This document shows positions 32,010 through 53,755 of a DNA stretch of 64,000 nt, one piece after another. Source of the DNA: Acidobacteriota bacterium. GTDB lineage: Bacteria; Acidobacteriota; UBA890; WLXD01. Every line of letters begins with the position of its first letter. Within the stretch, counting starts at the first letter, position 1. The DNA is taken from contig CAXWPL010000004.1 in assembly GCA_963666215.2 (NCBI GenBank), forward strand, positions 128,001 to 192,000, given 5' to 3'. Made by a program: the position numbers and the translations under genes. Below the pieces are notes generated by a model. It was not told the DNA's origin. It made no database searches and was given only the letters and a program-made list of their open reading frames with translations.

Positions 32010-33917
32010 TCATGCGCCGAACGCCTCCTCGAGCTCATGGAACAGGGCTTCGCGAACCAGCACGACGGGTAGGAACCCGATCCGGTACACGCGATCGTGG
32101 AAGTCCTTCAGCGTCCCACGCTCATTCAGCTCCCGCATCTTCTGGAAGTAGTCCTCGCGCAGCAGCATCCATTGGAAGTACCCGAGCGTGGGGGCGGCGT
32201 AGTCGGCACCAGTCCGCGCGGTGATGTTATCGATGTTGATCCGGCCACCCTCTGGAACGAATCCGATCGTCTCGGTCTCGAGCTCGACCGCCTCGTCGTA
32301 GCTCATCCCGCCGGTGTTGAGTCCCGAGTCGATGATCACCCGGCCGAAGCGCCACAGCTTGAGGCGCAGTGTCTCAAGCTCGTAAACATCCTGCTTGTCG
32401 GCGGGGAACCAACCGTACTGCGGATCGGGCGTCAGCTCCCATTCGATGTAGTAGCACCAGGCCTGATTGGAGTAGTAGCTGCTGAGATAGCGACGCAGTC
32501 GGCGGGGATTCTCCTTCTGATAGAGGCTCTGCAGGTGGTGCCCGGGATAGACCTCGTGGGTGGTGATGGCGTACATGAACGAGGCTTCCTTCTCGGTCAG
32601 GTTCGCCTCCGCCATCGCGTCCGGCCAATCTGGAGACACCGGGATGATCCGCCAGGCCGACTTCCGACTCGGCGAGTCGGGCGACACGCCCGGCCCGAAC
32701 CCCCACCACTGGGATGCCCACATGCTGGGGTCGGCCGCCGCCATGATCGAGTCGTCGTCGTCCCAGGGAATGCTCACCAGGTCGTTTTCAATGACCCAAT
32801 CGCGGCTCCGCCGCGCTGCTTCGAGGTGCTTGAATACGAGCTGCTCGGCGAAGAAGTGATCCTGCTTCTCGTCCTTGATGATCTCGAGCCACGTGCGCTC
32901 CGGATCGATTCGCCGCGCCTTGACCTCGAGGTGGTGGCGAATGATATCGAACTGCTTCCAACCCCAATCGTGGTAGCCAGGGACGCGCGTGAAGCTCTCC
33001 TGGCCGCGAGCGATGCGGCGCAGGTGGATGTCGTTCTCCGGGAACATGTAGCGGTGCTCCTGGAGGCCGTTGAAGACCTCCGCACCGACCCGCCAGTCGC
33101 CCTCCGGAAGCCGCGGCAGATCCTCGCGCAGGAAGGCACGAAAGCGCGCCATGGCGTCGGCTGCGCGCCCGCTCTCGGCCAGAAGACGGTCGCGCAAGGC
33201 GTCGTCGTCGACGCGCTCGGCAAAAGCCGGCAGATCGTTGGCCAGCACCGATTGAAAACCCACCAAGGTCTGATCGGTGAGCTCGATCCAACGCGCGATG
33301 TACTGGTCGAGGTTAGCGCGGGCGCTCGTCAGGCGCGTTTGCAGCAGCTGCAGATCGTCGATCAGGTCCGCTGCCCGCGCCGCCGGGGGCCGCGGATCGA
33401 CGGAGATCTTGTAGACGATCGGGCCGTTGTTGAAGTACAGGCGAGGATCCTGCCGCCAGCGCTGCACGTTCTCGGCCACCAGCAGATCGGCGCGCAGCGT
33501 GCCCTCCAGGAAGCGGTAGTCGATGTCCTGGTCGAACGTCAGCGCGCCGCGGTCGATGTCACCGAGCTCGTCGATGAACCGCCGCAACGTCGCCGTCTGC
33601 CGCCGAAAGCCCGCCGCGTCCATCTCCCGCAGCGCCGCGTCACCGCGGGTGATTGGCGCCGAGAGGGCGTCCCCGCCACCGACACCCTGAACCTCGCGCA
33701 GGTACCGATCGACCAGCCCCTCGAACTGCCAGCCAGCCTCCTGAGCCGGCGCCAGGCTCGACCCTGCACCGACGGCGGCCCCCATCAGCAGCAGCAGCGA
33801 CAGAACGACGGTGGCGGCCTCGCCGCTGCGCGCACGGTGCCGTCCGTCTCCGGAAGCCCGCAGATCCTCGGCGCACGGCCTTGGGGACCTCCACCGCGAC
33901 CTGCCGGAGCGCATCAT
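32010..33917 (-). CDS. Secreted DUF885-family protein, tandem copy 5 (last transcribed)
   Basis: HEVYPGHH; SNQAWCYYIE; FHDRVY. The start overlaps the upstream stop (TGATG); the longer ORF call is a shadow extension. Confidence 0.85.
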   Translation of the reverse strand: MMRSGRSRWRSPRPCAEDLRASGDGRHRARSGEAATVVLSLLLLMGAAVGAGSSLAPAQEAGWQFEGLVDRYLREVQGVGGGDALSAPITRGDAALREMDAAGFRRQTATLRRFIDELGDIDRGALTFDQDIDYRFLEGTLRADLLVAENVQRWRQDPRLYFNNGPIVYKISVDPRPPAARAADLIDDLQLLQTRLTSARANLDQYIARWIELTDQTLVGFQSVLANDLPAFAERVDDDALRDRLLAESGRAADAMARFRAFLREDLPRLPEGDWRVGAEVFNGLQEHRYMFPENDIHLRRIARGQESFTRVPGYHDWGWKQFDIIRHHLEVKARRIDPERTWLEIIKDEKQDHFFAEQLVFKHLEAARRSRDWVIENDLVSIPWDDDDSIMAAADPSMWASQWWGFGPGVSPDSPSRKSAWRIIPVSPDWPDAMAEANLTEKEASFMYAITTHEVYPGHHLQSLYQKENPRRLRRYLSSYYSNQAWCYYIEWELTPDPQYGWFPADKQDVYELETLRLKLWRFGRVIIDSGLNTGGMSYDEAVELETETIGFVPEGGRINIDNITARTGADYAAPTLGYFQWMLLREDYFQKMRELNERGTLKDFHDRVYRIGFLPVVLVREALFHELEEAFGA

Positions 33918-39534: not shown

Positions 39535-41343
39535 TCAGTTGCTGATGGCCTGGCCGAACTGCTGCTCCAGCTCGTGGAACATGGCCTCGCGTACCAGGAC
39601 GACAGGCATGAAGCCGATCCGATAGACGCGGTCGTGGAAGTCTTTCAGCGTTCCGCGCTGGTTGAGCTCGCGCATCTTCTGGAAGTAGTCCTCGCGCAGC
39701 AGCATCCACTGGAAGTAGCCGAGCGTCGGCGCCGCCATGGTCGAGCCGATGCGCGAGACGATGCCGTCCATGTTGATCCGCGATCCCTCTTCGACGAACC
39801 CGACCCCGCTCATCTCGAGCTCCAGCGCATCGTCGTAGCTCATGTCGCTGGCGTGGATGCCCGAGTCGATGATCACGCGGTCGAAGCGCCAGAGCTTCAA
39901 ACGAAGGGTCTCGAGCGCGTAGATGTCCTGCTTGTCGGCCGGGAACCAGCCGTACTGCGGATCCGGGGTCAGCTCCCACTCGATGTAGTAACACCAAGAC
40001 TGGTTCGAATAGCTGCTCTCGTACTGCCGCAGCCGACGCGGTATCTCGTTCGCGTAGAGCCGCTGCAGGTGGTGCCCCGGGTACACCTCGTGCGTGGCGA
40101 TGGCGTACATGAACATCGCGTCTTTCTCGGTCAGGTTGCCCTCGGCCTGCTGGTCTGGCCACTCCGGGTTGACCGGGATGATCGTCCACGCCGACTTGCG
40201 GAACTCGGTCTGGCCGGCGGGCACCCCCGGGCCCCAACCCCACCACTGCGACATCCACAGGCTCGGGTCGGCGGCCTGCATGATCGAGTCGTCGTCGTCC
40301 CACGGAATCGTCACCAGGTCGTTGTCGATAACCCAGTCGCGGCTCGCTCGTGCCGCCTCGAGGTGCTTGAAGACGAGCTGCTCGGCGAAGAAATGATCCT
40401 CCTTTTCGTCGCGCAGGATCTCGAGCCACGTACGGTCGGGGTCGATCCGCGCGGCCTTGACTTCGAGGTGGTGCTTGACGATCTCGAACTGCTTCAACCC
40501 CCACTCCCGATACGCCGGAAAGCGGGTGAAGCCCGGCATCCCGCGGGCGATACGGCGCAGGTGGATGTTGTCCTCCGGGAACATGTAGCGAGTCTCCATG
40601 AGCCCGTTGAAGACCTCGGCGCCGATCCGGTAGTCGCCCACCGGCATCTCGGACAGGTCCGAGTTGATGTGCTCACTGAAGTTGCCCAGGGCGGCGATCG
40701 CGCGATTGTTCTCGGCGAGCAGCCGCTGGCGAAGGTCGGCGTCGCCGACCCGCTCCGCGAACTTCGGAAGGTCGTTCTCGAGGACGACCAGGAAACCGTC
40801 GATGAAGGCGTCGGACAGCTCCACCCATCGGGCGATGTACTGGTTCAAGTTCGCCTTGCCGTTCTCCAGCCGTGTCCGCAACATCTGCAGGTCGGAGATC
40901 AGCCCCTCGGCTCGCACCTCGATGGGGCTCGGATCGACGATGACCTTGTAAGCGACCGCGCGGTTATTCAGGTAGACGCGCGGGTCTTGCCGCCAGCGCT
41001 GGACGTTCTCTTCCTCGAGCACGGCAGAAGCAAGGATGCTCTCGAGGAAGCGATGGTCGATGTACTGATCGAAGGTCAGGGTGTCGCGATCGATGCCCCT
41101 GAGCTCGGCGAGGAGCCTACGCTTGGTCTCGGTGACCCGCTCGAAGCTCTCGGCGCTCAGATCGCGCGGAGCCGAGCTCGCGCCGACGCCGCGCACCTCC
41201 TCGAGATAGCGGTCGATGAGACCCTCGAACTCCATGTTGAGGGCGGCCTGCGGACTCTCGACTCCGCCGGCTGCGAGTGAGCCCGCGAGCAGGCTGAGTC
41301 CGACGATGGCGCCGGCGGTCAGAACAAATCCGCGTTTCTTCAT
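39535..41343 (-). CDS. Secreted DUF885-family protein, tandem copy 1
   Basis: Signal peptide MKKRGF; GGAGG RBS; HEVYPGHH; SNQSWCYYIE. Confidence 0.88.
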   Translation of the reverse strand: MKKRGFVLTAGAIVGLSLLAGSLAAGGVESPQAALNMEFEGLIDRYLEEVRGVGASSAPRDLSAESFERVTETKRRLLAELRGIDRDTLTFDQYIDHRFLESILASAVLEEENVQRWRQDPRVYLNNRAVAYKVIVDPSPIEVRAEGLISDLQMLRTRLENGKANLNQYIARWVELSDAFIDGFLVVLENDLPKFAERVGDADLRQRLLAENNRAIAALGNFSEHINSDLSEMPVGDYRIGAEVFNGLMETRYMFPEDNIHLRRIARGMPGFTRFPAYREWGLKQFEIVKHHLEVKAARIDPDRTWLEILRDEKEDHFFAEQLVFKHLEAARASRDWVIDNDLVTIPWDDDDSIMQAADPSLWMSQWWGWGPGVPAGQTEFRKSAWTIIPVNPEWPDQQAEGNLTEKDAMFMYAIATHEVYPGHHLQRLYANEIPRRLRQYESSYSNQSWCYYIEWELTPDPQYGWFPADKQDIYALETLRLKLWRFDRVIIDSGIHASDMSYDDALELEMSGVGFVEEGSRINMDGIVSRIGSTMAAPTLGYFQWMLLREDYFQKMRELNQRGTLKDFHDRVYRIGFMPVVLVREAMFHELEQQFGQAISN

Positions 41344-41549: not shown

Positions 41550-44360
41550 CTAGAACTCGATCCGCAGGCCGAGCCGGAAGATGCGCGGCGGCGTCACGTT
41601 GCGAGGCACGTTGAGGTTCGAGCCGGTGAGCACGCCGGTGCGCAGGATGGTGTTGGCGTTGAGCACGTTGAAGCCATCGACCATGGCCTCGAGCGAGATG
41701 TCCCCGACACGGAAGGTCTTCGCGAACCTGAGGTCGAGAATGCTGCTGGCATCCTGGCGGAACTCGCCATTCTCCTCCACGCGGATCGAGGAGAAGGAAC
41801 CGGTCGTGGCGTCCTGGACCAGGAGCTCGCGCGCCATCTGGTGATCGAGGCCACCGTAGGTGTTCATGCCACTCGTAATCCGGTACGCGCCACCGATATT
41901 GATGTCATAGGGGGCCACGAAGAAGCCGGAGACCTTGCCGGCGAACGGTGCGTCCAGGCCGGTCGAACCGTAGGGGAACACCTCCGCCGTGTTGCGGTTC
42001 GTGAAGCCGCCCACGCGACCGTACTGGTCAGAGATGGTCGCCGACGCGGTCATCATCCACACGCCGTCGAAGCGGCGGGTGTAGACGAAGTCGACGCCGT
42101 GGTAGCGGTTGTAATCGTCCTCGTGATTCCCGAGGGTCTGCTGTCTGTCGACGCCGACGAAGGCCGGGTCGATCGACCAGTAGTCGATCGTGTTACCCGT
42201 GATCGGATCGATCGCGGTGGTCGGGATGTTGTAGGCCGACGTCGGAATGCCCGCCCAGCTCACGCCCCATAGGTTGCTGTTCTTGCGGTAGGTATAGCGG
42301 GCGCTGAGCGAGCTGCGCTCCGTCAGGCCCCTCTCCACCGCGAAGCTGACCTCGTCGCTGTGCCAGGTATCGAAGTCGTCCGCGAATTGGTTGCTGCTGC
42401 TCAGTGTCTGGATGCCCGAGGCGTTGAACTCGTCCGGATAGTCCGGGAAGTCGTTGCCGTTCAGGTCGTTCCACGAGACCGTTGCGTTGCGGTTCGAGAA
42501 CCTGATCCCGTAGCTGTGCATGTCGCTGTTGTCGATGCCGGTGTAGTAGCGGCCGGCGCTGCCCTTGACGACCGTGCGGCCGTCACCCTTGACGTCCAAG
42601 GCGAAGCCGAGGCGTGGCGAAACGGTGGTCCAGCCGGCGACGCTGTCGTTCGGCTGGACGGCCTGCTGCTCCGAGAAGAAGATGCCGACCCAGGGCCCCT
42701 GGTTTTGGGGCTGCTGCGGGATGCTGGCGTTGTGGTCCTCTACCCGGACGCCGAGGTTCAGGGTCAAGTTGCCGATCCGGACGTCGTCCTGGACGTAGCC
42801 CATCCACACCTGCTGGTGGTTTCGTGCCTCGACCGGGGAGTTGAACACCCTCACGCGGAAGGGCACGCCGTTAGCATAGCGGCGCTCGAGGCTCGCGTTG
42901 TGTGAGGTTCGGGTGTAGTAGGAGCCGCGCCGGTGCTCGACCCCGAGCTTGAGGTCATGCGAAGCGCTGGCCCCGTCCTTGAACAGCGTGTAGTTGCTGC
43001 CGAGGGTCCACAGGTGGGCGAGCGAGAAGAACTCACTCCGCGCGGCGTCCGAGCGAACGCCGGTGACCTCGTCGAAGCGGCTGGTGGTGTTGCCGACGCC
43101 GTCCTGGTACTTCAGCGGAAATGGCGGGCTGCCCCAGCCGGCGTAGACGTCGAGGAAGGCATTGTTGCCAAACACCCGGTTGTACTTGCCCTGCATGATG
43201 AAGTGGCGGCCATCCTGGAACCACGAGCCCTCCGGGGCGGTGAACTGGCTGACGCCACGATTGGCACGGATCTTTTGGGCCCACTCGCCGTTCACCATCA
43301 GCGTGCTGCTGTCGTCGAGACGAGCCGTGACCTTGGAGGTGAGGTTGGTGAGGAAGGAGCCGTCGGTGCACCCGCTGCCGTCCGGCAGGAGACAGTTCAG
43401 GACAAACGGTGTCACCCGATACTCGCGGAACGCGGTGTAGAACCAGACGCTGTCACTCACAACCGGCCCGCCGAAGTCCACCGAGATGTCGGTGAGCTTG
43501 TCGAGATTACCGCCGGTCGAGGTGACTCCCTTGTCCCGGAGCTCCTGGTTGAGGTTGTCGCCCTGGAGAGACGGGCCCTCGTAGTAGCCGCGGATACCGC
43601 CGTGAAAATCATTGCCACCGTCCTTGACGATGGTGTTGATGATCATGCCGCCCTTCGAGTTCTCGGCCGAGATCCCCGAGGTGGTGAACTGGATCTCCTC
43701 GAAGGCATCGGTGTTGAAATAACCGAGCCCGATGCCGTGCTCGAACAGCGTCATGTCCATACCGTTCATGTTGTACTGCTGCGCCTCGCGCTCCGATCCA
43801 TGTACCTGGAACCCGGACAGCTGGACGCTCTCGTTGCCGCCTACGTTCTCCTTGGAGAGCATCACACCAGGCACCTGCTGGAGGTACGACCACAGGTCCA
43901 TCGCCGAGGGGATCTCGTGGAGCTGGTTCTGCCCCCAGACGGAGGTGGCCCCTGAGTTCTTGGTGTCGATGAGCGGCGCCTCGCCAGTGACCGAGACGGT
44001 CTCGGACACGCCGGAAAGATCGAGCCGCGCGTCGATCGTGAGGCTCACACCAACGCTGACGCCGACGGCGCTGAATTCGGCTGTTCTAAAGCCCTGTAGC
44101 TCGACCCGCACGAGGTAGGTCCCGGACTGCAGGCCGGGGAACCGGTACACTCCCGCTACCGACGTTGTCGTCGTCCGACTGCCACCGATCAGGTCGTCGC
44201 TCTCGACCGTCACCGTGACCCCGGGCAGTGGCGCCCCGTCAGGGTCGGTAATGATGCCTCGGATGGCTCCGGTATCCCGCCCCTGCGCGAACGCCACGTT
44301 CGCGGTGACGAGAACGAGAACGACGACAAAACAACAGAACGCGCAACGGGCCACTCGCAT
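41550..44360 (-). CDS. TonB-dependent outer-membrane receptor (carboxypeptidase-regulatory N-domain, Oar-like), paralog 1
   Basis: Signal peptide; G.ITDPDGAPLPGVTVT; YRFPGL; G.IINTIVKDGGNDFHG; TLNLGVR; SPRLGFA.D; C-terminal PRIFRLGLRIEF. Confidence 0.9.
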   Translation of the reverse strand: MRVARCAFCCFVVVLVLVTANVAFAQGRDTGAIRGIITDPDGAPLPGVTVTVESDDLIGGSRTTTTSVAGVYRFPGLQSGTYLVRVELQGFRTAEFSAVGVSVGVSLTIDARLDLSGVSETVSVTGEAPLIDTKNSGATSVWGQNQLHEIPSAMDLWSYLQQVPGVMLSKENVGGNESVQLSGFQVHGSEREAQQYNMNGMDMTLFEHGIGLGYFNTDAFEEIQFTTSGISAENSKGGMIINTIVKDGGNDFHGGIRGYYEGPSLQGDNLNQELRDKGVTSTGGNLDKLTDISVDFGGPVVSDSVWFYTAFREYRVTPFVLNCLLPDGSGCTDGSFLTNLTSKVTARLDDSSTLMVNGEWAQKIRANRGVSQFTAPEGSWFQDGRHFIMQGKYNRVFGNNAFLDVYAGWGSPPFPLKYQDGVGNTTSRFDEVTGVRSDAARSEFFSLAHLWTLGSNYTLFKDGASASHDLKLGVEHRRGSYYTRTSHNASLERRYANGVPFRVRVFNSPVEARNHQQVWMGYVQDDVRIGNLTLNLGVRVEDHNASIPQQPQNQGPWVGIFFSEQQAVQPNDSVAGWTTVSPRLGFALDVKGDGRTVVKGSAGRYYTGIDNSDMHSYGIRFSNRNATVSWNDLNGNDFPDYPDEFNASGIQTLSSSNQFADDFDTWHSDEVSFAVERGLTERSSLSARYTYRKNSNLWGVSWAGIPTSAYNIPTTAIDPITGNTIDYWSIDPAFVGVDRQQTLGNHEDDYNRYHGVDFVYTRRFDGVWMMTASATISDQYGRVGGFTNRNTAEVFPYGSTGLDAPFAGKVSGFFVAPYDINIGGAYRITSGMNTYGGLDHQMARELLVQDATTGSFSSIRVEENGEFRQDASSILDLRFAKTFRVGDISLEAMVDGFNVLNANTILRTGVLTGSNLNVPRNVTPPRIFRLGLRIEF

Positions 44361-44458
44361 CTTTAGTGCCTTCCTGGTGTGTAGCATCCGCCGCCAACGG
44401 CATCATGTGGGTGCCCTCGGCGGGCAGAATTACGGTTATCAATCGTTATCAAAGCGTA

Positions 44459-44488
44459 GTTTTACTAACCCTTCGGTCCTCTTGTCAA
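44459..44488 (-). promoter_or_regulatory. Promoter of TBDR1 (TTGACA-18-TAAAAC) with an operator-like site at 44463-44478
   Basis: Same architecture as the promoter at 53844-53873. Confidence 0.5.
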
Positions 44489-44566
44489 GCGATCGGCTCC
44501 GAATTCATGCCGTCGCGCTAACCAACGGCGATGGTTCATCCATCGACGGTTTCAGGGGTCGGACCC

Positions 44567-45221
44567 CTACTCGCCGCGACGTAGGTGTTCGTCGAAGAAC
44601 CGTTCCATCTTCCCGAAGGCGTCGACCCAGCTCCGCTTGCGGCCGAAGAAGTGAGGCTCGCCCGGGTAAACCTCGAACTCGAACCGCTTGCCCCGTTGCA
44701 ACATCTCGTCGACCAGCTTGATCGACTGCAGGAAGTTCACGTGGACATCCGCCGTGCCCTGCACGGTCAGCACGGGCGCCTGGAGATCGTCGAGGAAATT
44801 CAACGCTGAGGCGTTGAAGTAGGCCTCGGGATTCTGCTCGGGCGTTCCCAGGCGAGCGTACATCCAGCCGTTGCGGACGTCCCATGGCCCTCCCTCCATC
44901 TCGAAGTCGAGAACACCCGCGACGTTGATGTCCGCCGCCGTCGACGGGCACGACGTAGAGATCCTGGGTGCGCCAGTCGGTCCATAGAAAGGACACGTGG
45001 CCACTGTCGGGCGAGAAGTTGGGCCGGGAGGGCCAGAGAGCGTCCAGATAGTCGCCCATGGACAGGGTGTCATCGGTGGGGGCCGCCGGATCATTGCCGC
45101 TAGTGCCCCACGGATCGCCACTGCAGGCCGTCACGGAGACGACGAGAAGCGCGGCGGTGCTGATCGCTCGTCCCGCTCGCCGTTGCCGTGGGCCCGAGCC
45201 GGTCCGGTCGTCACTGGTCAT
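44567..45221 (-). pseudogene. Internally deleted, frameshifted copy of the S9 peptidase
   Basis: The N-terminus up to VVPVDGG is joined out of frame to INVAGVLDFE; the propeller and the catalytic Ser motif are missing. Confidence 0.88.
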
Positions 45222-45407: not shown

Positions 45408-48209
45408 TCAGAAGTTGATCCGCGCCCCGATCCGGAAGACCCGCGGCGGCAGCACCGCGATCGGCGTTCCGAGATTGCCACCGGTGGTCGTGCCCTCCAC
45501 CAGGATGTTGTTGGCATTGAGCGCGTTGAAGCCATCGATCATCGCCTCGACATCGACGTTCCCGAGCCGGAAGGTCTTGGCCAACCTCAGGTCGAGGATG
45601 TTGGTTGCGTCCTGTCGGAACGATCCGTTCTCCTCTACCCGAATGTTGTAGAAGGAGCCGGTGGTCTGATCCGCGACCAGAAGGGTGCGAGCCATGTTGT
45701 TGGCGCGGCCGTCAACGTTACGGCCGCCCGAGTACCGGTACGCGAACCCGAGGTTGATGTCGTACGGCGCCACATAGTAGCCGGAGACGCGACCGTGGAG
45801 CGCCGTGTCGAGCCCGTGGGCACCGTAGGGGAAGATCTCCCGAGTGTTCCGGTCCGAGAAGCCGCCGATGCGGCCGTACTTGTCGGAGATCGTCGCCGAG
45901 GCGGTCACCATCCAAGTTCCGTCGAAGCGACGGGTGTAGATGAAATCGACGCCGTGGTAGCGGTTGTAGTTGTCCTCCTGGTTGGTCAGCGTGGGCACGT
46001 TGTCGGCACCGACGAACGCCGGGTCGATCGACCAGTACTCGACCGTGCTGCTCGTGATCGGATCGACGGCGGTGCTCGGGATGTTCCAGGCCGAGGACGG
46101 GATTCCATCCCAGGTCTGGGCCCAGAGATTGTTGTTCTTTCGGTACGTGAAACGGGCCGAGAGCGAGCTTCGCCGGGTGAGCTCGCGCTCGATCGAGAGG
46201 TTGAACTCGTCGGCGTGCGGACTCCTGAAGTCGTCCGCCATCCGTCGGCTGCTGGTCAGCTCGACGATGCCCGTGGTGTTGAACTCGTCCGGGAAGTCCG
46301 CGACGTCGTTGCCGTTGAGATCGTTCCACGGGGCCGCCGCGCTGGCATTGACCCTACGGATCCCGTAGCTGTGGATGTCAGCGTTGTCGATCCCGAAGTA
46401 GTAGCGTCCGAAGCTGCCCTTGACCACGGTCTGGCCCGTGCCCATGAGGTCCCAGGCAAAGCCGACCCGCGGCGACAAGGTCGTCCAGCCGGCGATGCCG
46501 TCCTGCGGCTCTACTGGCGGCTGCTCCGAGAAGAAGACGCCGATCCAAGGCCCCGTCTGGGCCTTCTGCTCCGGGATGTTGGCGTTGTGTTTCTCGACGC
46601 GGACGCCGAGGTTCAGCGTCAGGTTGCCGATGCGCACATCGTCCTGGACGTAGCCCATCCACACCTGCTGGTAGCTGTTGGCCTCGACCGGGTGGTTGCG
46701 CACGCTCACCCGGAAGGGCACGCCGTCGGCGTACTGGCGCTCCAGCGCGCCGTTCGACGAACTGCGCGTGTAGTAGGAGCTGCGCCGGTGCTCGACCCCG
46801 AACTTCAGGTCGTGCGAGGCGCCCAGCATGTCGTCATTGAACAACGTGTAGTTGGTGCCCATCGTCCACAGGTGGGCAATCGCCCTGAACTCGATTCTCG
46901 CCGCTCCAAACCGGTGTCCCGTGACGACGTCGACGGCCGTCGTGGTATCACCGACTCCTGTCTGGTAGTTCAACGGGAAGGGCGAGTTGCCGTAGCCGAT
47001 GTAGGCGTCCAAGAACCCCGTGTTGCCGAAAACGCGGTTGTACTTGGCCTGCAGCGCGAAGTAGCGGTAGGCTTCGATCCAGGTCGCCTCTGAGGCCACG
47101 AACTGGCCGACGTTTCGGGTCGGCCGGTCGTACCACTGGCGCTCGCCGTACAGCATGACCGTGCTCGCGTCGTCGGGCCGAGCGGTGATCTTCGCGTTGA
47201 CGTTCTTGATCGTCACGCCGTCGGTGCAGGGTACCCCTTCGGGCGTGATGCAGTTGAGCTTGATCGGGAATACGGCGTACGAGCGACCCCCGGTGTAGAA
47301 CCACGCCCTGTCACGCTTGATCGGGCCACCCAGGTTCAGGGTGGCCAGTTTGATGTAGTCCACGCCACCGGCAGAGCTGGTGACGCCGGCCTTGCGGAGA
47401 TCGTCGTCGATATTGCTCGACTGTAGGCTGTCGTTCTCGAGCATGCCCTGGAGCATGCCGTGGAAGTCGTTGCCGCCGTCCCTCACCACGGCGTTGATGA
47501 TGACGCCGCCCTTCGAGTACTCGGCGGTGATGCCGGCGGTCGTGAACTGGATCTCCTCGAAGGCGTCCGTGTTGTAGTAGCCGAGCCCGATCCCGTGCTC
47601 GAACAGCGTCATGTCCATGCCGTTGATGTTGTACTGCTGCTGCTCGCGCTCCGAGCCGTGTACCTCGAAGGCGTCGAGCATGACGCTGCCGCTGCCGCCG
47701 ACGTTCTCACGGTTGGTCTGCATCCCCGGAACCTGCTGGATGTACGACCACACGTCCATCGCCGAGGGAATTTCCTGGAGCTGATCCTCGCCCCAGGTGA
47801 AATCGGAGGAGGAGTTCGCGAGGTCGATGATCGGCGCCTCACCGGTAACGGTGAGGGTCTCCGCGACACCGGCGAGCTCGAGCAGCGCGTCGAACGTCAG
47901 GGTGCTAGCGACGTGGACTCCGATGTCCGCTACCTGAACCGTCCTGAAGCCGGTCAGGGTCACCAGGAGCTCGTACGTGCCCGGGGGCAGACCGGGAAAC
48001 CGATAGATACCCGCGAGCGTCGTCGTCGCCGTCCGAGTCCCTCCCAGGAGCGCCTCGCTGCTCAACGTCACCGTGACCCCGGGCAGTGCCGCCCCGTCAG
48101 GATCTGTAATGATCCCTCGGATGGCTCCGGTATCCCGGCCTTGCGCGAGCGCCACGCTCGCGACACTGAGAATGAGCAAACAACAGAACAAGCATCGGGC
48201 CGTTCGCAT
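45408..48209 (-). CDS. TonB-dependent receptor, paralog 2 (duplicate of 50954-53755)
   Basis: Same motifs as TBDR1; C-terminal GARINF. Start MRTARC behind GGGGAGG. Confidence 0.88.
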   Translation of the reverse strand: MRTARCLFCCLLILSVASVALAQGRDTGAIRGIITDPDGAALPGVTVTLSSEALLGGTRTATTTLAGIYRFPGLPPGTYELLVTLTGFRTVQVADIGVHVASTLTFDALLELAGVAETLTVTGEAPIIDLANSSSDFTWGEDQLQEIPSAMDVWSYIQQVPGMQTNRENVGGSGSVMLDAFEVHGSEREQQQYNINGMDMTLFEHGIGLGYYNTDAFEEIQFTTAGITAEYSKGGVIINAVVRDGGNDFHGMLQGMLENDSLQSSNIDDDLRKAGVTSSAGGVDYIKLATLNLGGPIKRDRAWFYTGGRSYAVFPIKLNCITPEGVPCTDGVTIKNVNAKITARPDDASTVMLYGERQWYDRPTRNVGQFVASEATWIEAYRYFALQAKYNRVFGNTGFLDAYIGYGNSPFPLNYQTGVGDTTTAVDVVTGHRFGAARIEFRAIAHLWTMGTNYTLFNDDMLGASHDLKFGVEHRRSSYYTRSSSNGALERQYADGVPFRVSVRNHPVEANSYQQVWMGYVQDDVRIGNLTLNLGVRVEKHNANIPEQKAQTGPWIGVFFSEQPPVEPQDGIAGWTTLSPRVGFAWDLMGTGQTVVKGSFGRYYFGIDNADIHSYGIRRVNASAAAPWNDLNGNDVADFPDEFNTTGIVELTSSRRMADDFRSPHADEFNLSIERELTRRSSLSARFTYRKNNNLWAQTWDGIPSSAWNIPSTAVDPITSSTVEYWSIDPAFVGADNVPTLTNQEDNYNRYHGVDFIYTRRFDGTWMVTASATISDKYGRIGGFSDRNTREIFPYGAHGLDTALHGRVSGYYVAPYDINLGFAYRYSGGRNVDGRANNMARTLLVADQTTGSFYNIRVEENGSFRQDATNILDLRLAKTFRLGNVDVEAMIDGFNALNANNILVEGTTTGGNLGTPIAVLPPRVFRIGARINF

Positions 48210-48589
48210 CTGGGGCCTCCCCCGCAGTAGATCCCCAGCGAGCCCGAGACGGCCGTCCGCGATCCCAGGCATGCCAGGGTAATAATTAGTCAAAGGTGTT
48301 TTACTAACTCGTCAGTCAACAACTGCAAGTCGTGTGCCCGGACACCATCGCCGCGAAGTTGCTCGAAAATTACGTGAAGTCGTAGATATGAGACGTAAAT
48401 CTACGTAATTACGGGGAAGACGAAGGTTTCTCTATGTAGCAACTGGCCGCAAGAATTCAATTAATTGAACAATGGTTTCAAAAGGCCGAAGAGAACAGGT
48501 CCTCTTGTCAAGCGATCGGCTCCGAATTCATGCCGTCGCGCTAACCAACGGCGATGGTTCATCCATCGACGGTTTCAGGGGTCGGACCC

Positions 48590-50767
48590 CTACTCGCCGC
48601 GACGTAGGTGTTCGTCGAAGAACCGTTCCATCTTCCCGAAGGCGTCGACCCAGCTCCGCTTGCGGCCGAAGAAGTGAGGCTCGCCCGGGTAAACCTCGAA
48701 CTCGAACCGCTTGCCCCGTTGCAACATCTCGTCGACCAGCTTGATCGACTGCAGGAAGTTCACGTGGACATCCGCCGTGCCCTGCACGGTCAGCACGGGC
48801 GCCTGGAGATCGTCGAGGAAATTCAACGCTGAGGCGTTGAAGTAGGCCTCGGGATTCTGCTCGGGCGTTCCCAGGCGAGCGTACATCCAGCCGTTGCGGA
48901 CGTCCCATGGCCCTCCCTCCATCTCGAAGTCGAGAACACCCGCGACGTTGATTCCGGCGGCAAACACCTCCGGGTACTTCGACAGCAGCGTCAGGACCAT
49001 GTGGCCGCCGTAGCTCATCCCATGTACGCCCACGCGATCGGTGTCGACGAACCCGAGCCCCGCGAGGTAGTTCACCCCTTCGACCGCGTCTGCAGCGTCA
49101 CCGACGCCGACGTCCAGGTAGTTGGCGGTGCGGAAGTCCCGGCCGTAGCCGTAGCTGCCCCGGAAGTCGACGTTGAGAACGACGTAGCCGCGGTCGGCGA
49201 GTCGCTGGTGCCAGCCGTACCAGGCGACGTTGTCCTTCTGCGGCCCCGAACCCACGAAGACCTCCTGGTAGATCGCCGCCTGGTGGACGTGGACGATCGC
49301 CGGATAGGAGCCATCCGGATCGAACGACCGCGGTCGGAACAGCTGGGCGCGGATCGGCACGCCCTCGTGACCGGGGTAGCTGACGATCTCCGGGCTCTTC
49401 CAGTCGTAGGCATGCAGCTCGGGTGTCATGGAGTCGGTGAGCTGCACGGCCTCGGCAGCCGCAGCGGTTTCCGTTACCCACAGGTCGGGCAGGCGCGACG
49501 AGTCGGAATGTACGAACGCGATTCTCTCGCCGTCGGGAGACAAGCGAGCCGTGGTGTTGTTACCGGCCAGATCTGTCAGCTGGGTACGCTGGCCGCCATC
49601 GGCGCTGACCGAGTAGAGCTGCCGTCCCTCGGTTCCGGCCTCCGTGGAGACGAAGTAGATGGTCCCGCCATCCGGTGACCAGGCCGGGAAGCTGACCTCG
49701 AAGGGACCGGTCGTCACCTGGACCGCCTCGCCACCCTCCGCCGGCACCAAGTAGACGTGGTTCCAGCCGTCTTCGTCGCTGGTGTACAGCACCCTGGCGC
49801 CGTCAGGCGAAAAGGCAACGACCCGGTCTCGGCCGTTCAGGTAGCGATCATCATGCTGGGTCGCGAGAGTGGCGAGGACATTGCCGCGAAGATCGACGCG
49901 ATGAAGCGAACGATCCTTGACGTTGATGGAAGTGCGCTGGACGACGAGGCTCGCACCGTCCGGTGCCCAGGCCATGACCCCTTCGCGCTCGGGTGACGCG
50001 AGCAGCGTCCGAACCTCACCCGTTCGCGTCGACACGATCGCCGCGTCACGCTGGCCGCCTCGTGTTCGTCGAAAGACGAGCAATGGACCCGAGTAGGGGG
50101 GTGAGTAGTCGAGCCGCACCGACGGATCGCCGACGCTGCCAGCGATCCACTCCCCCGCGGGCGCCCAGCTCCCGAGGCTCATGCGCCCGATCTGGCCGCG
50201 GCTCGACTCGGCACCATCGTCGAGACCGAGGAGAACCAGCTCCCCCCCGCGCCTGAACGCGACGCTATCTCCATCCGGGGAGACGAGAGCCGACCCTTCA
50301 CGAGCCTCGGTCTCGGTGAGGTTGCGCGTGCCCCCCTCCGGCACCGACGCCAGAAACAGGTCGCCGTCGTCCGCGTAGACGATGCCGCTGCCGTCGGGAA
50401 GCCACTCGCCGAAGCTCCCGGAGCTGTTCCACGTCGACCCGCCGAGAAAACCGTCCGACTGCGTCAGCGCGACTGGCGGCCCGCCGTCGACGGGCACGAC
50501 GTAGAGATCCTGGGTGCGCCAGTCGGTCCATAGAAAGGACACGTGGCCACTGTCGGGCGAGAAGTTGGGCCGGGAGGGCCAGAGAGCGTCCAGATAGTCG
50601 CCCATGGACAGGGTGTCATCGGTGGGGGCCGCCGGATCATTGCCGCTAGTGCCCCACGGATCGCCACTGCAGGCCGTCACGGAGACGACGAGAAGCGCGG
50701 CGGTGCTGATCGCTCGTCCCGCTCGCCGTTGCCGTGGGCCCGAGCCGGTCCGGTCGTCACTGGTCAT
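48590..50767 (-). CDS. S9-family (DPP-IV/acylaminoacyl) serine peptidase, lipoprotein
   Basis: Lipobox VSVTAC; SPDG propeller repeats; DFRGSYGYG; GMSYGG (Ser); GTADVHV (Asp); PGEPH (His). Confidence 0.92.
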   Translation of the reverse strand: MTSDDRTGSGPRQRRAGRAISTAALLVVSVTACSGDPWGTSGNDPAAPTDDTLSMGDYLDALWPSRPNFSPDSGHVSFLWTDWRTQDLYVVPVDGGPPVALTQSDGFLGGSTWNSSGSFGEWLPDGSGIVYADDGDLFLASVPEGGTRNLTETEAREGSALVSPDGDSVAFRRGGELVLLGLDDGAESSRGQIGRMSLGSWAPAGEWIAGSVGDPSVRLDYSPPYSGPLLVFRRTRGGQRDAAIVSTRTGEVRTLLASPEREGVMAWAPDGASLVVQRTSINVKDRSLHRVDLRGNVLATLATQHDDRYLNGRDRVVAFSPDGARVLYTSDEDGWNHVYLVPAEGGEAVQVTTGPFEVSFPAWSPDGGTIYFVSTEAGTEGRQLYSVSADGGQRTQLTDLAGNNTTARLSPDGERIAFVHSDSSRLPDLWVTETAAAAEAVQLTDSMTPELHAYDWKSPEIVSYPGHEGVPIRAQLFRPRSFDPDGSYPAIVHVHQAAIYQEVFVGSGPQKDNVAWYGWHQRLADRGYVVLNVDFRGSYGYGRDFRTANYLDVGVGDAADAVEGVNYLAGLGFVDTDRVGVHGMSYGGHMVLTLLSKYPEVFAAGINVAGVLDFEMEGGPWDVRNGWMYARLGTPEQNPEAYFNASALNFLDDLQAPVLTVQGTADVHVNFLQSIKLVDEMLQRGKRFEFEVYPGEPHFFGRKRSWVDAFGKMERFFDEHLRRGE

Positions 50768-50887
50768 CCTGCTACCTCCGTTGCCAACACGCGTGCGAGT
50801 CCGCTCGGGCGTCGACCGCTAGACCGTGCGCCGCGACACGCTGGTCGCCCTGCGCGCCCGCGTGGCCCGAATCGCCCTGGAAAACGT

Positions 50888-50930
50888 CAAGGGCGGTGGC
50901 GACCGGGCGACCGGCTCGCCACTGCCCTTG
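50888..50930 (-). terminator. Strong hairpin just downstream of the TBDR (also at 45342-45384)
   Basis: CAAGGGCGGTGGCGA-13nt-TCGCCACTGCCCTTG. Confidence 0.55.
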
Positions 50931-50953
50931 CGGCTCAGTCGAGGCGAGGCGCC

Positions 50954-53755
50954 TCAGAAGTTGATCCGCGCCCCGATCCGGAAGACCCGCGGCGGCAGCA
51001 CCGCGATCGGCGTTCCGAGATTGCCACCGGTGGTCGTGCCCTCCACCAGGATGTTGTTGGCATTGAGCGCGTTGAAGCCATCGATCATCGCCTCGACATC
51101 GACGTTCCCGACCCGGAAGGTCTTGGCCAACCTCAGGTCGAGGATGTTGGTTGCGTCCTGTCGGAACGATCCGTTCTCCTCTACCCGAATGTTGTAGAAG
51201 GAGCCGGTGGTCTGATCCGCGACCAGAAGGGTGCGAGCCATGTTGTTGGCGCGGCCGTCAACGTTACGGCCGCCCGAGTACCGGTACGCGAACCCGAGGT
51301 TGATGTCGTACGGCGCCACATAGTAGCCGGAGACGCGACCGTGGAGCGCCGTGTCGAGCCCGTGGGCACCGTAGGGGAAGATCTCCCGAGTGTTCCGGTC
51401 CGAGAAGCCGCCGATGCGGCCGTACTTGTCGGAGATCGTCGCCGAGGCGGTCACCATCCAAGTTCCGTCGAAGCGACGGGTGTAGATGAAATCGACGCCG
51501 TGGTAGCGGTTGTAGTTGTCCTCCTGGTTGGTCAGCGTGGGCACGTTGTCGGCACCGACGAACGCCGGGTCGATCGACCAGTACTCGACCGTGCTGCTCG
51601 TGATCGGATCGACGGCGGTGCTCGGGATGTTCCAGGCCGAGGACGGGATTCCATCCCAGGTCTGGGCCCAGAGATTGTTGTTCTTTCGGTACGTGAAACG
51701 GGCCGAGAGCGAGCTTCGCCGGGTGAGCTCGCGCTCGATCGAGAGGTTGAACTCGTCGGCGTGCGGACTCCTGAAGTCGTCCGCCATCCGTCGGCTGCTG
51801 GTCAGCTCGACGATGCCCGTGGTGTTGAACTCGTCCGGGAAGTCCGCGACGTCGTTGCCGTTGAGATCGTTCCACGGGGCCGCCGCGCTGGCATTGACCC
51901 TACGGATCCCGTAGCTGTGGATGTCAGCGTTGTCGATCCCGAAGTAGTAGCGTCCGAAGCTGCCCTTGACCACGGTCTGGCCCGTGCCCATGAGGTCCCA
52001 GGCAAAGCCGACCCGCGGCGACAAGGTCGTCCAGCCGGCGATGCCGTCCTGCGGCTCTACTGGCGGCTGCTCCGAGAAGAAGACGCCGATCCAAGGCCCC
52101 GTCTGGGCCTTCTGCTCCGGGATGTTGGCGTTGTGTTTCTCGACGCGGACGCCGAGGTTCAGCGTCAGGTTGCCGATGCGCACATCGTCCTGGACGTAGC
52201 CCATCCACACCTGCTGGTAGCTGTTGGCCTCGACCGGGTGGTTGCGCACGCTCACCCGGAAGGGCACGCCGTCGGCGTACTGGCGCTCCAGCGCGCCGTT
52301 CGACGAACTGCGCGTGTAGTAGGAGCTGCGCCGGTGCTCGACCCCGAACTTCAGGTCGTGCGAGGCGCCCAGCATGTCGTCATTGAACAACGTGTAGTTG
52401 GTGCCCATCGTCCACAGGTGGGCAATCGCCCTGAACTCGATTCTCGCCGCTCCAAACCGGTGTCCCGTGACGACGTCGACGGCCGTCGTGGTATCACCGA
52501 CTCCTGTCTGGTAGTTCAACGGGAAGGGCGAGTTGCCGTAGCCGATGTAGGCGTCCAAGAACCCCGTGTTGCCGAAAACGCGGTTGTACTTGGCCTGCAG
52601 CGCGAAGTAGCGGTAGGCTTCGATCCAGGTCGCCTCTGAGGCCACGAACTGGCCGACGTTTCGGGTCGGCCGGTCGTACCACTGGCGCTCGCCGTACAGC
52701 ATGACCGTGCTCGCGTCGTCGGGCCGAGCGGTGATCTTCGCGTTGACGTTCTTGATCGTCACGCCGTCGGTGCAGGGTACCCCTTCGGGCGTGATGCAGT
52801 TGAGCTTGATCGGGAATACGGCGTACGAGCGACCCCCGGTGTAGAACCACGCCCTGTCACGCTTGATCGGGCCACCCAGGTTCAGGGTGGCCAGTTTGAT
52901 GTAGTCCACGCCACCGGCAGAGCTGGTGACGCCGGCCTTGCGGAGATCGTCGTCGATATTGCTCGACTGTAGGCTGTCGTTCTCGAGCATGCCCTGGAGC
53001 ATGCCGTGGAAGTCGTTGCCGCCGTCCCTCACCACGGCGTTGATGATGACGCCGCCCTTCGAGTACTCGGCGGTGATGCCGGCGGTCGTGAACTGGATCT
53101 CCTCGAAGGCGTCCGTGTTGTAGTAGCCGAGCCCGATCCCGTGCTCGAACAGCGTCATGTCCATGCCGTTGATGTTGTACTGCTGCTGCTCGCGCTCCGA
53201 GCCGTGTACCTCGAAGGCGTCGAGCATGACGCTGCCGCTGCCGCCGACGTTCTCACGGTTGGTCTGCATCCCCGGAACCTGCTGGATGTACGACCACACG
53301 TCCATCGCCGAGGGAATTTCCTGGAGCTGATCCTCGCCCCAGGTGAAATCGGAGGAGGAGTTCGCGAGGTCGATGATCGGCGCCTCACCGGTAACGGTGA
53401 GGGTCTCCGCGACACCGGCGAGCTCGAGCAGCGCGTCGAACGTCAGGGTGCTAGCGACGTGGACTCCGATGTCCGCTACCTGAACCGTCCTGAAGCCGGT
53501 CAGGGTCACCAGGAGCTCGTACGTGCCCGGGGGCAGACCGGGAAACCGATAGATACCCGCGAGCGTCGTCGTCGCCGTCCGAGTCCCTCCCAGGAGCGCC
53601 TCGCTGCTCAACGTCACCGTGACCCCGGGCAGTGCCGCCCCGTCAGGATCTGTAATGATCCCTCGGATGGCTCCGGTATCCCGGCCTTGCGCGAGCGCCA
53701 CGCTCGCGACACTGAGAATGAGCAAACAACAGAACAAGCATCGGGCCGTTCGCAT
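50954..53755 (-). CDS. TonB-dependent receptor, paralog 3
   Basis: Same as TBDR2 apart from one residue (FRVGN vs FRLGN). Confidence 0.9.
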   Translation of the reverse strand: MRTARCLFCCLLILSVASVALAQGRDTGAIRGIITDPDGAALPGVTVTLSSEALLGGTRTATTTLAGIYRFPGLPPGTYELLVTLTGFRTVQVADIGVHVASTLTFDALLELAGVAETLTVTGEAPIIDLANSSSDFTWGEDQLQEIPSAMDVWSYIQQVPGMQTNRENVGGSGSVMLDAFEVHGSEREQQQYNINGMDMTLFEHGIGLGYYNTDAFEEIQFTTAGITAEYSKGGVIINAVVRDGGNDFHGMLQGMLENDSLQSSNIDDDLRKAGVTSSAGGVDYIKLATLNLGGPIKRDRAWFYTGGRSYAVFPIKLNCITPEGVPCTDGVTIKNVNAKITARPDDASTVMLYGERQWYDRPTRNVGQFVASEATWIEAYRYFALQAKYNRVFGNTGFLDAYIGYGNSPFPLNYQTGVGDTTTAVDVVTGHRFGAARIEFRAIAHLWTMGTNYTLFNDDMLGASHDLKFGVEHRRSSYYTRSSSNGALERQYADGVPFRVSVRNHPVEANSYQQVWMGYVQDDVRIGNLTLNLGVRVEKHNANIPEQKAQTGPWIGVFFSEQPPVEPQDGIAGWTTLSPRVGFAWDLMGTGQTVVKGSFGRYYFGIDNADIHSYGIRRVNASAAAPWNDLNGNDVADFPDEFNTTGIVELTSSRRMADDFRSPHADEFNLSIERELTRRSSLSARFTYRKNNNLWAQTWDGIPSSAWNIPSTAVDPITSSTVEYWSIDPAFVGADNVPTLTNQEDNYNRYHGVDFIYTRRFDGTWMVTASATISDKYGRIGGFSDRNTREIFPYGAHGLDTALHGRVSGYYVAPYDINLGFAYRYSGGRNVDGRANNMARTLLVADQTTGSFYNIRVEENGSFRQDATNILDLRLAKTFRVGNVDVEAMIDGFNALNANNILVEGTTTGGNLGTPIAVLPPRVFRIGARINF

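Follow-up and report, generated by a model that had tools for sequence, protein, structure and literature searches.

In the polysaccharide utilization loci (PULs) of Bacteroidota, with their SusC/SusD pairs, and in the carbohydrate utilization (CUT) loci of Xanthomonas, which centre on a TonB-dependent transporter (TBDR), an outer-membrane TonB importer is encoded beside secreted or periplasmic hydrolases. In FusA/FusC and YddB/PqqL (E. coli) a TBDR imports a polypeptide that a periplasmic zinc protease then cuts; the Fus system comprises an M16 protease, a dedicated TonB homolog and an ATP-binding cassette (ABC) exporter, and serves iron supply. Passages of a preprint on Porphyromonas gingivalis describe RagAB as mediating TonB-dependent outer-membrane uptake of protease-generated oligopeptides (bioRxiv 10.1101/755678). 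Here we describe a minus-strand gene cluster in a 64,000-nt stretch (the window) of an Acidobacteriota genome (G000, 91.7% complete) that encodes two distinct TBDRs, an S9-family peptidase, five tandem paralogs of the DUF885 family (PF05960) and two pyrroloquinoline quinone (PQQ)-type propeller proteins. The cluster probably represents a genuine system for harvesting nutrients, with peptides as the likeliest ones, and its core recurs in distant marine bacteria. An earlier note on this DNA was aware of no described system of this architecture, and in the literature that we searched we likewise found none.

DUF885 is widespread, with 1,962 representative clusters at 50% identity, and of 121 genomes sampled from the host's phylum 80 had matches (a tally that includes the unpublished genomes G070 and G046, which enter no other result), yet despite three crystal structures we found no function for it in the literature searched. 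The locus gives the family a testable context: the cell envelope, a dedicated importer, peptidase partners and a cultured carrier, Chromatocurvus halotolerans.

Organization of the locus

Genes were chosen by third-position G+C and by Pfam matches in this region of 63-68% G+C. On the minus strand the cluster reads as follows (ORF, open reading frame).

50954..53755, minus strand: TBDR-A, Oar-like TonB-dependent transporter, 933 aa, ATG at 53755, signal peptide ending in ALA before QG (Pfam-hit ORF 50954-53839)
48590..50767, minus strand: S9 serine peptidase, 725 aa, predicted lipoprotein
48318..48497: spacer of 180 bp that parts the two copies of the TBDR-A/S9 unit, 44% G+C, found once in the genome
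45408..48209, minus strand: TBDR-A', near-identical second copy of TBDR-A (Pfam-hit ORF 45408-48293)
44475..45221, minus strand: S9 remnant (pseudogene), first ~95 codons and last ~120 codons joined out of frame
41550..44360, minus strand: TBDR-B, Oar-like TonB-dependent transporter, 936 aa (Pfam-hit ORF 41550-44387)
39535..41343, minus strand: D1, DUF885, 602 aa, signal peptide, PF05960 98 bits
37726..39522, minus strand: D2, DUF885, 598 aa, signal peptide, PF05960 113 bits
35869..37671, minus strand: D3, DUF885, 600 aa, signal peptide, PF05960 116 bits
33917..35731, minus strand: D4, DUF885, 604 aa, ATG at 35731, signal peptide, PF05960 117 bits
32010..33917, minus strand: D5, DUF885, 635 aa, PF05960 128 bits, start overlapping the D4 stop by 1 nt
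30399..31946, minus strand: PQQ1, divergent 8-bladed-type propeller with a lipoprotein-like N-terminus, AVGC (Pfam-hit ORF 30399-32009)
28270..30402, minus strand: PQQ2cyt, quinohemoprotein dehydrogenase with an N-terminal cytochrome c and a PQQ propeller, start overlapping the PQQ1 stop by 4 nt

All of these genes are co-directional, and Pfam matches and N-terminal sequences recovered every element of the run that the earlier note had read from the DNA: a TBDR, an S9 lipoprotein, further TBDRs, five DUF885 paralogs with signal peptides and two PQQ propellers. Some of its details are revised here. The re-mapped starts of TBDR-A (53755), TBDR-B (44360) and D6, a sixth paralog described below (5602), equal the coordinates it gave, but its span of 32010..53755 leaves out the PQQ genes at 28270-32009. 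Its several TBDRs are indeed three genes, but TBDR-A' is a 99.9% copy, so that only two are distinct, and the last of its two propellers is a quinohemoprotein with an N-terminal cytochrome c. The short gaps and overlapping stops that it noted downstream are present, the intergenic distances from D1 to PQQ2cyt being, in order, 12, 54, 137, -1, 0-63 and -4 nt; wider gaps lie around S9 (186-296 nt) and ahead of D1 (206 nt). The envelope location that it proposed is borne out by a signal peptide or lipobox on every product: D1-D6, the TBDRs and PQQ2cyt have Sec-type signal peptides, S9 has a VTAC lipobox and PQQ1 the lipobox-like AVGC. Pfam scans gave no match to the SusD family among the genes of 28270-53839; in the cluster they detected no carbohydrate-active enzyme (CAZyme) family, the enzyme families there being S9, DUF885 and PQQ only, and no hybrid two-component or extracytoplasmic function (ECF)/anti-sigma regulator. 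General Pfam scans noted no tonB or exbBD in the window.

The DUF885 paralogs

At a Pfam gathering cut-off of 32.4 bits, PF05960 was found in all seven DUF885 genes that the earlier note had assigned by eye: the five tandem paralogs (98-128 bits) and two further window copies, D6 (108 bits) and D7 (70 bits). D1-D6 are 53-81% identical to one another (D3 vs D4, 81%), with mean pairwise identities of 46-66% in residues 31-240 vs 64-92% in residues 241-600. They represent a distinct subfamily, as only three full-length sequences among the 1,962 representatives reach 40-56% identity and the rest lie at or below 33%. The crystallized DUF885 proteins, 3u24 (Shewanella), 3o0y (Colwellia) and 3iuk (Arthrobacter), belong to the same family but are 14-18% identical to the window proteins; phmmer matched 3u24 (E 1.3e-16) and 3o0y (E 1.3e-07), and 3iuk gave no sequence match. 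No NCBIfam model matched the TBDR or DUF885 proteins of the cluster, and an ESM Atlas feature search, in which PF05960 was skipped, returned no usable match.

Several lines of evidence suggest a relationship with zinc-dependent oligopeptidases. An alignment of 65 family members contains the motif H422-E423-x-x-P426-G427-H428-H429, in which H422, E423, P426, G427 and H428 are at least 90% conserved, followed by an invariant E459 that is a candidate third zinc ligand; D1-D6 all keep these five motif residues and E459. In an AlphaFold2 (AF2) model of D3 (pLDDT 91) one helix ends at residue 423 and a new one begins at 428, the break falling at Pro-Gly. The model superimposes on 3iuk (Z 33.2, root-mean-square deviation (rmsd) 4.0, 496 residues aligned), 3u24 (Z 32.8, rmsd 4.3, 518 aligned) and 3o0y (Z 31.7, rmsd 2.9, 515 aligned). 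Among the best 50 entries, all further matches belong to the M32 carboxypeptidases, the M3 oligopeptidases (PepF, neurolysin, Pz-peptidase and Dcp) or ACE/ACE2; they score Z 9-13 and span residues 40-594, although in all-helical proteins a Z under about 13 may mean no more than a common arrangement. Matches to these three groups align about 330-396 residues at 8-11% identity. Parts of a published article (PMC12572635) place DUF885 in one Pfam clan with M32/M3/M2 peptidases and mention a predicted zinc site. The consistent structural matches, the His-Glu...Glu pattern and the clan assignment thus agree in predicting a resemblance of DUF885 to M32/M3/ACE oligopeptidases.

A tree of 47 subfamily sequences (quick method, SH-aLRT support) shows D1 and the main gammaproteobacterial clade as sister groups, whilst D5 falls with the second tandem copy of three related loci (L002, L003 and L015) and D6 with its own orthologs. 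From these groupings the D1/D5/D6 paralogy is old; the D1/D5 split predates the spread across lineages, and the gene order D1-type, D5-type, PQQcyt is common to the cluster and the gammaproteobacterial loci. The D2 clade was seen only in G000 and in G003, a genome from another genus of the same family, which has orthologs of D1, D2, D4 and D5 at 89-93% identity each (D1 90%, D4 93%). D3 is a duplicate of D4 and has no counterpart in G003; as G003 carries four paralogs instead of five, D3 is an extra copy in G000. D5 (33785-33917) has an arginine-rich N-region of ~35 residues before its hydrophobic segment, unlike the short n-regions of the other paralogs, and its true start or export route is uncertain.

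Recurrence of the locus in distant bacteria

With D3 as query (E<=1e-50), 39 of 40 other related genomes gave no match, G003 alone carrying the subfamily. There the order is TBDR-A, S9, insertion sequence (IS) elements, TBDR-B, D1, D2, D4, D5, PQQ1, PQQ2cyt, at 78-93% identity. Beyond these relatives, members of the subfamily come from marine Gammaproteobacteria (Woeseiaceae, Chromatocurvus, Ca. Rariloculaceae, Ca. Azophilus and others) and in Ca. Marinacidobacterales; Chromatocurvus halotolerans DSM 23344 has D1-, D5- and D6-type loci (L015, L018 and L021). The nearest relatives outside the host's family are thus marine Gammaproteobacteria, and not members of Acidobacteriota or Gemmatimonadota, where the earlier note had advised looking. 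Protein matches make Acidobacteriota the probable phylum of the host: named TBDR homologs and MacB/FtsX-type permeases in genomes of the phylum point to it, whereas AccC is ambiguous, its best named matches being divided between Acidobacteria (59%), Gemmatimonadota (58%) and others.

We collected 25 related loci with D-subfamily genes (numbered with L) from about 20 genomes, several of them close kin. Sixteen have a TBDR within 10 kb of the D-subfamily gene, which is 16 of the 22 loci with enough upstream flank, and in 13 the TBDR gene is directly adjacent to the DUF885 gene. On the downstream side the last D-type gene is directly followed by a PQQ2cyt homolog (65-73% identity) in 12 loci and by a PQQ1 homolog (64%) in 2, and 4 loci end early. 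As a control we took 20 canonical DUF885 loci (±8 kb) of the host's phylum, in which none of 53 ORFs of at least 600 aa was a TBDR by Pfam and a local hidden Markov model (HMM) found a partial TBDR in one locus. The recurrent DUF885-TBDR linkage that the earlier note predicted therefore holds for this subfamily but not for DUF885 in general.

The TBDRs of the related loci are of the classical Plug-plus-barrel type, 28-84% identical among themselves, and have no BLAST similarity to TBDR-A or TBDR-B, which implies that the transporter was recruited independently. Since orthologous DUF885-PQQ modules stand beside non-orthologous importers in two phyla, function explains the linkage better than inheritance. 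Passages of a paper on Woeseiaceae (PMC12175321) mention TBDRs only for iron and in the methods.

The neighbours of the D-subfamily genes include peptidases of four families: S9 (L002, L016, L017, L021), M24 Xaa-Pro-peptidase-like (L002, L006, L014, L020, L021, L023), M1 (L002) and M17 (L015); amidohydrolases are also present. Amino-acid permeases (L020, L023), amino-acid-type ABC transport genes (L006, L008, L014) and PutA (L023) accompany them, as do DAO-type (L004, L010, L014), DHDPS-like (L003, L010, L014) and SoxA-like genes (L006, L014). Assigning these last three to hydroxyproline catabolism is a lead only, which NCBIfam did not confirm. Other neighbours are sugar-type ABC systems (SBP_bac_1, MalK; L003, L010), a sulfatase (L004) and, in nine gammaproteobacterial loci (L004, L005, L007, L009, L010, L012, L018, L019, L022), a soluble glucose/sorbosone dehydrogenase (GSDH)-type PQQ dehydrogenase, mostly encoded just upstream of the TBDR. 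Judged by sequence, the theme of these neighbours is the catabolism of peptides and amino acids, biased toward proline-specific peptidase families, and PQQ dehydrogenases keep recurring among them. A conserved S-adenosylmethionine (SAM) methyltransferase gene follows PQQcyt in L003, L006, L008, L010, L011 and L014, with a fragment in L005.

Transporters, S9 peptidase and a recent duplication

Pfam detects CarboxypepD_reg in TBDR-A (64 bits), TBDR-B (65.5 bits) and TBDR-A'. The Plug domain scores just above its cut-off of 23.9 bits in TBDR-B (24.0) and just below it in TBDR-A (21.6), and no barrel family was detected by Pfam in either. Homologs of TBDR-B at 43-49% identity bear PF25183, PF00593 or PF07715, and the named homologs at 27-28% identity are TonB-dependent receptors (Aminicenantales, Luteitalea) and one carboxypeptidase-like regulatory domain protein (Vicinamibacterales). 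The C-terminal Phe of TBDR-B, F936, is invariant in 44 sequences. A fold search was needed, since phmmer of TBDR-B against PDB sequences gave 0 matches. In the AF2 model (pLDDT 89) a plug-sized region at ~135-260, where Pfam places Plug (136-237), precedes a barrel, and Foldseek returned at least 500 PDB matches at E<=0.001, the best 50 all being TonB-dependent transporters. FusA (4zgv, E 9.5e-55, TM 0.68 on target) and YddB (6ofr, 1.9e-52), both transporters of polypeptides, come first and PqqU ranks fourth; sequence identity to Fus/YddB-type TBDRs is only 13%, and E values among the TBDR fold matches span no more than 1e-55 to 1e-47. TBDR-A and TBDR-B are 64% identical. Among the 40 related genomes their orthologs occur in G003 only (TBDR-A, 78% identity), the remaining matches lying at or below 36%.

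The S9 protein matches Peptidase_S9 (154 bits), DPPIV_N (101 bits) and PD40, and has a nucleophile elbow GMSYGG at residues 583-588 with Ser585; the other two triad residues, Asp and His, were assigned by eye within the C-terminal part. Its orthologs are 82% identical in G003 and 63-64% identical in L016 and L017, where they adjoin DUF885. A second intact S9 paralog (G000:C5:678603-680762, 75% aa identity) stands alone, away from the other parts of the cluster.

The TBDR-A/S9 unit (5.4 kb) has been copied recently, and its second S9 copy carries a ~1.5-kb deletion: 44935-48317 matches 50481-53863 at 99.911% (3 mismatches in 3383 nt), and 44475-44934 matches 48498-48956. The copy accounts for one recent duplicate beside the two distinct TBDR genes. 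The S9 remnant lacks residues ~96-604, including the catalytic Ser585, and is frameshifted in a three-frame reading. In one DNA run the listed contigs reach depths of 27.7 and 30.5 over the repeated part vs 8.2-13.9 over the unique part, and contigs over the repeat break at 44504 and 44935; these depths fit at least two copies of the repeat, though contig depths are not copy numbers. At the position of the duplicate G003 carries about 8.6 kb of IS elements, which marks the site as a rearrangement hot spot. The 180-bp spacer at 48318-48497 is AT-rich and, by eye, palindrome-rich.

PQQ proteins

PQQ2cyt is by its sequence a quinohemoprotein dehydrogenase. An N-terminal cytochrome c with the heme site CLACH occupies residues ~49-133 (Cytochrome_CBB3, 36.7 bits at 49-129), and the propeller (PF01011, 189 bits) matches 4cvb over residues 146-710 with E 8.9e-143 and also 9m2c, 7wmd and 4mh1 (range E 1e-137 to 1e-143). 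The N-terminal position of the cytochrome c domain is unlike that in the type II alcohol dehydrogenases (ADHs) 1kv9, 1kb0 and 1yiq, in which the propeller aligns from the N-terminus. PQQ1 (PF01011, 144 bits; PQQ_2, 122 bits) is more divergent, reaching only E 2e-23 to quinohemoprotein ADHs over its first half. Both fall below the cut-off of 480 bits for TIGR03075 (methanol/ethanol PQQ dehydrogenase), at 341.8 (PQQ2cyt) and 159.7 bits (PQQ1). PQQ1 orthologs are 86% identical in G003 and 64% identical in L016 and L017, where they follow DUF885.

Promoter-like elements and expression

By eye, a TTGACA-N18-TAAAAC/TAGAAA element containing GACTAA lies ahead of both TBDR-A and TBDR-B in G000 and in G003 (window 53756-53931, 44361-44504 and 48210-48497; G003 L033:12740-13150 and L032:19100-19700); in G003 it occurs three times before TBDR-A. 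This shared promoter-like element, which may serve as a common operator, was not listed by consensus scans for promoters and terminators; over 27000-54500 these scans found no more sites than in shuffles.

Sequencing runs of 12 studies contain the stretch. Contigs from three RNA libraries (two studies) partly cover the TBDRs and D1-D5, with the PQQ genes in one or two runs, and span the TBDR-B/D1, D2/D3 and D3/D4 gaps; in single RNA runs parts of D4/D5 and of the PQQ genes are uncovered. These contigs are compatible with transcription as a unit, but as they carry neither strand nor level, may derive from DNA carry-over and were compared with no silent control stretch, the co-expression that the earlier note expected is hinted at only.

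Other features of the window

Two further DUF885 genes lie at 1-5602, as the earlier note had observed, though they are not adjacent to each other and only D6 belongs to the same subfamily.

3758..5602, minus strand: D6, DUF885 of the same subfamily, 53-57% identical to D1-D5, signal peptide (ORF to 5701)
2433..3770, minus strand: major facilitator superfamily (MFS) transporter, MFS_1 163 bits, start overlapping the D6 stop
1497..2426: luciferase-like (LLM) oxidoreductase, between D7 and the MFS transporter
1..~1450, minus strand: D7, distant DUF885, cut by the window edge, PF05960 70 bits
6584..9880, minus strand: BNR/Sortilin-Vps10 repeat protein, Sortilin-Vps10 94 bits

The MFS gene is the only inner-membrane transporter gene tied to a DUF885 gene in the window, and MFS genes occur also in L009 and L012. 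D7 is 41% identical to the 'DUFgen' protein of L004 and belongs to the second DUF885 type, which in gammaproteobacterial loci is found alongside the subfamily. Orthologs of D6 are followed by a BNR/sortilin protein, 57-60% identical to that of the window, in five of five loci (L020-L024); in G003 the BNR protein (87%) likewise stands beside D6, and D6, SnoaL and BNR are directly next to the cluster. The BNR/Sortilin protein has a below-cut-off match to a glycosylhydrolase family.

None of the other DUF885 genes of G000 is next to a TBDR; on contig C3 a weak local-HMM DUF885 match follows an Oar-like TBDR, but Pfam did not confirm it and we discarded it. Two further DUF885 genes, at G000:C3:325654-329411 (L035), may be decaying copies: they are split into several ORFs, with one in-frame TAG in the genome search, and their neighbours are an IS481-like transposase and a PD40/DPPIV_N propeller protein.

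Other candidates for a part in protein breakdown are encoded at 60575-63632, on the same strand as TBDR-A and about 7 kb upstream of it: a PD40-repeat protein and a tricorn-like S41 peptidase (Tricorn_C1, PDZ_Tricorn, Peptidase_S41), next to a protein of beta-lactamase fold. Luciferase-like (F420/FMN-type) oxidoreductases are encoded at 1497-2426, 20061-21305 and 24504-25430, the first passing the F420-dependent LLM family TIGR03619 (240.7 vs 166.9 bits). AtuA and a carboxyltransferase lie together at 55948-59321 and a 2-oxoacid dehydrogenase E1/E2 set at 21151-24440, and genes for the catabolism of lipids and branched-chain compounds abound in the surrounding window.

Proposed function and alternatives

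From the gene content, location signals, folds, motif conservation, synteny and recurrence we infer a co-transcribed system in which the DUF885 proteins would be hydrolases of a peptidic substrate and the dehydrogenases would have a part. In the form that we favour, to which we give about an even chance, it would be an accessory, horizontally spread envelope system that imports and degrades oligopeptides or unfolded protein fragments. The two Oar-type transporters, TBDR-A and TBDR-B, would carry the substrate across the outer membrane, and the S9 lipoprotein (dipeptidyl peptidase IV (DPP-IV)/prolyl-oligopeptidase type) and the five periplasmic DUF885 proteins would cut it. The DUF885 panel would have a common catalytic half (HExxPGH...E in an ACE/M32/M3-like two-lobed helical fold) and a variable N-terminal lobe; because the paralogs differ mainly in that lobe, each would take a different subset of peptides. 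PQQ2cyt, with the second propeller, would oxidise a hydroxyl or hemiacetal group, either on the substrate (for example on a glycan or a hydroxylated residue) or on a released product, and its own cytochrome c domain would hand the electrons on to the respiratory chain. The products may enter the cell by general transporters, and there is the MFS transporter beside the sixth paralog. The earlier note had proposed a PUL-like system for a peptidic or amide-linked substrate, a suggestion with which the S9, M24, M1, M17, amino-acid permease and ABC neighbours are in keeping, but SusD and CAZymes are lacking and the PQQ partner is left unexplained.

A bolder version, which we put forward as a speculation and consider unlikely, would make DUF885 a large family of zinc oligopeptidases that work in the periplasm and have a variant site, HExxPGH. 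With a TBDR and a quinohemoprotein they would make up a new, mobile class of 'peptide utilisation locus' that marine Gammaproteobacteria and Acidobacteriota-like bacteria exchange, for proline- or hydroxyproline-rich, partly glycosylated peptides (collagen, spongin, algal wall glycoproteins); the paralogs would cover the sequence variety, and the dehydrogenases would take the hydroxylated or glycosylated remainder.

A number of observations weigh against peptide uptake and degradation. The most conserved partner of the DUF885 genes is PQQ2cyt, of the sorbose/alcohol-dehydrogenase type, which a purely peptidic reading leaves unexplained, and the GSDH genes of nine gammaproteobacterial loci indicate a sugar or alcohol moiety that is absent from a plain peptide. 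The DUF885 motif, with its variant spacing, departs from the canonical HExxH on one helix, the Z-scores to peptidases are of the modest size noted above, and in the literature searched, including under the names PF05960, COG4805 and IPR010281, we found no DUF885 protein with a tested activity. In 6 of the 22 loci no TBDR gene lies within 10 kb, and the loci are partly from close kin; NCBIfam gave the neighbours no equivalog-level names. The IS elements between TBDR-A/S9 and TBDR-B in G003 mean that the two halves need not be one operon, and the RNA-library contigs carry the limits given above. In G000, at its stated completeness, pqqC had no match and pqqE only matches far below cut-off; the host, which encodes PQQ-type dehydrogenases, may scavenge PQQ.

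The dehydrogenases are also where the foremost alternative begins, a minority possibility that deserves weight. The substrate would be a non-peptide or mixed conjugate (a glycoconjugate, a glycopeptide or an N-acyl- or ester-linked compound), the DUF885 proteins would be amidases, esterases or binders for varied head groups, and PQQ-dependent oxidation of a sugar or alcohol would be the main energy step. The rank of PQQ2cyt as best-conserved partner (12 loci, 65-73% identity), the match of its propeller to the sugar/alcohol dehydrogenases 4cvb, 7wmd and 4mh1 (E about 1e-140), the nine GSDH-type genes, the pairing of D6-type genes with a BNR/Sortilin protein that has a sub-cut-off glycosylhydrolase match, the SBP_bac_1/MalK genes (L003, L010) and sulfatase (L004), and the deviation of the DUF885 motif from HExxH would all fit such a substrate. 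Yet the cluster holds no CAZyme family, peptidases of four families recur beside D-subfamily genes, and beyond DUF885 itself the best 50 structural matches are all oligopeptidases or carboxypeptidases and ACE/ACE2; moreover, the presence of the putative catalytic Glu in all paralogs argues against pure binding proteins.

It is rather improbable that there is no single system at all and that two or three independent units lie side by side by chance (TBDR-A and S9; TBDR-B and the DUF885 array; the two PQQ genes), the five paralogs being a lineage-specific expansion without division of labour. One would then expect the breaks that are seen: the IS elements that part TBDR-A/S9 from the rest in G003, a promoter-like element for each TBDR, the gaps around S9 and before D1, the one or two D-type copies only in gammaproteobacterial loci and the recent origin of D3. 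The same elements nevertheless stay together over long distances, as S9, DUF885 and PQQ1 are contiguous in another order of bacteria (L016 and L017, 63-64% identity) and TBDR, DUF885 and PQQcyt in many gammaproteobacterial loci. The motif common to both TBDR promoters likewise speaks for one system, and the 89-93% identity of the G003 orthologs of D1, D2, D4 and D5, with D1/D5 types older than the lineages, implies that the copies are maintained and not drifting.

We regard as very improbable a form of metal or cofactor piracy, akin to the handling of ferredoxin by FusA/FusC. The cargo of the TBDRs would here be a metalloprotein, a metallopeptide or a cofactor such as iron, a lanthanide or PQQ; the periplasmic hydrolases would set the metal or cofactor free, and the PQQ dehydrogenases would benefit. 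In favour of it, FusA and YddB are the best fold matches of TBDR-B (PqqU at rank 4), PQQ enzymes are the most conserved partners, and the genome encodes such enzymes with pqqC not found and pqqE matches only far below cut-off. Against it, the fold ranks barely differ, the pqq negatives come from an incomplete genome, the cluster showed no Fur-box and no gene for an M16 protease, a TonB-like protein or metal ABC transport, and five diverged hydrolase paralogs, Xaa-Pro-type peptidases and amino-acid catabolism neighbours suit bulk nutrition better.

Should import and degradation of peptides prove correct, the locus would represent a TonB-dependent route of peptide acquisition outside Bacteroidota in which, unexpectedly, the breakdown of peptides is coupled to PQQ-linked respiration in the periplasm, and it would bear on the turnover of proteinaceous organic matter by marine, sediment and host-associated bacteria.

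Comparison with known systems

At the level of the enzymes, the DUF885 models resemble M32, M3 and M2 ACE peptidases in their predicted two-lobed all-helical fold, central cleft and His-Glu motif with a downstream conserved Glu. They differ from them in having HExxPGH with a helix break in place of HExxH, at 8-11% identity.

At the level of the locus, the absence of SusD, CAZymes and M16 from the cluster makes it no member of the PUL, RagAB or Fus systems. In contrast to a PUL it has no SusD-type lipoprotein, CAZyme, hybrid two-component or ECF/anti-sigma regulator by Pfam scans; its hydrolases are S9 and DUF885, and PQQ dehydrogenases belong to its conserved core. RagAB is a SusC/SusD pair that is not encoded with a periplasmic peptidase array or dehydrogenases, and the cluster has no RagB/SusD homolog. 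Genes for an M16 protease, a TonB homolog and an ABC exporter, which mark the Fus system, are missing, and the TBDRs are 13% identical in sequence. What the cluster does have in common with PUL and CUT loci is a TBDR gene beside hydrolase genes and a SusC-like N-terminal CarboxypepD_reg domain, and we therefore place it beside the PUL, RagAB and Fus systems as a locus that appears analogous to them.

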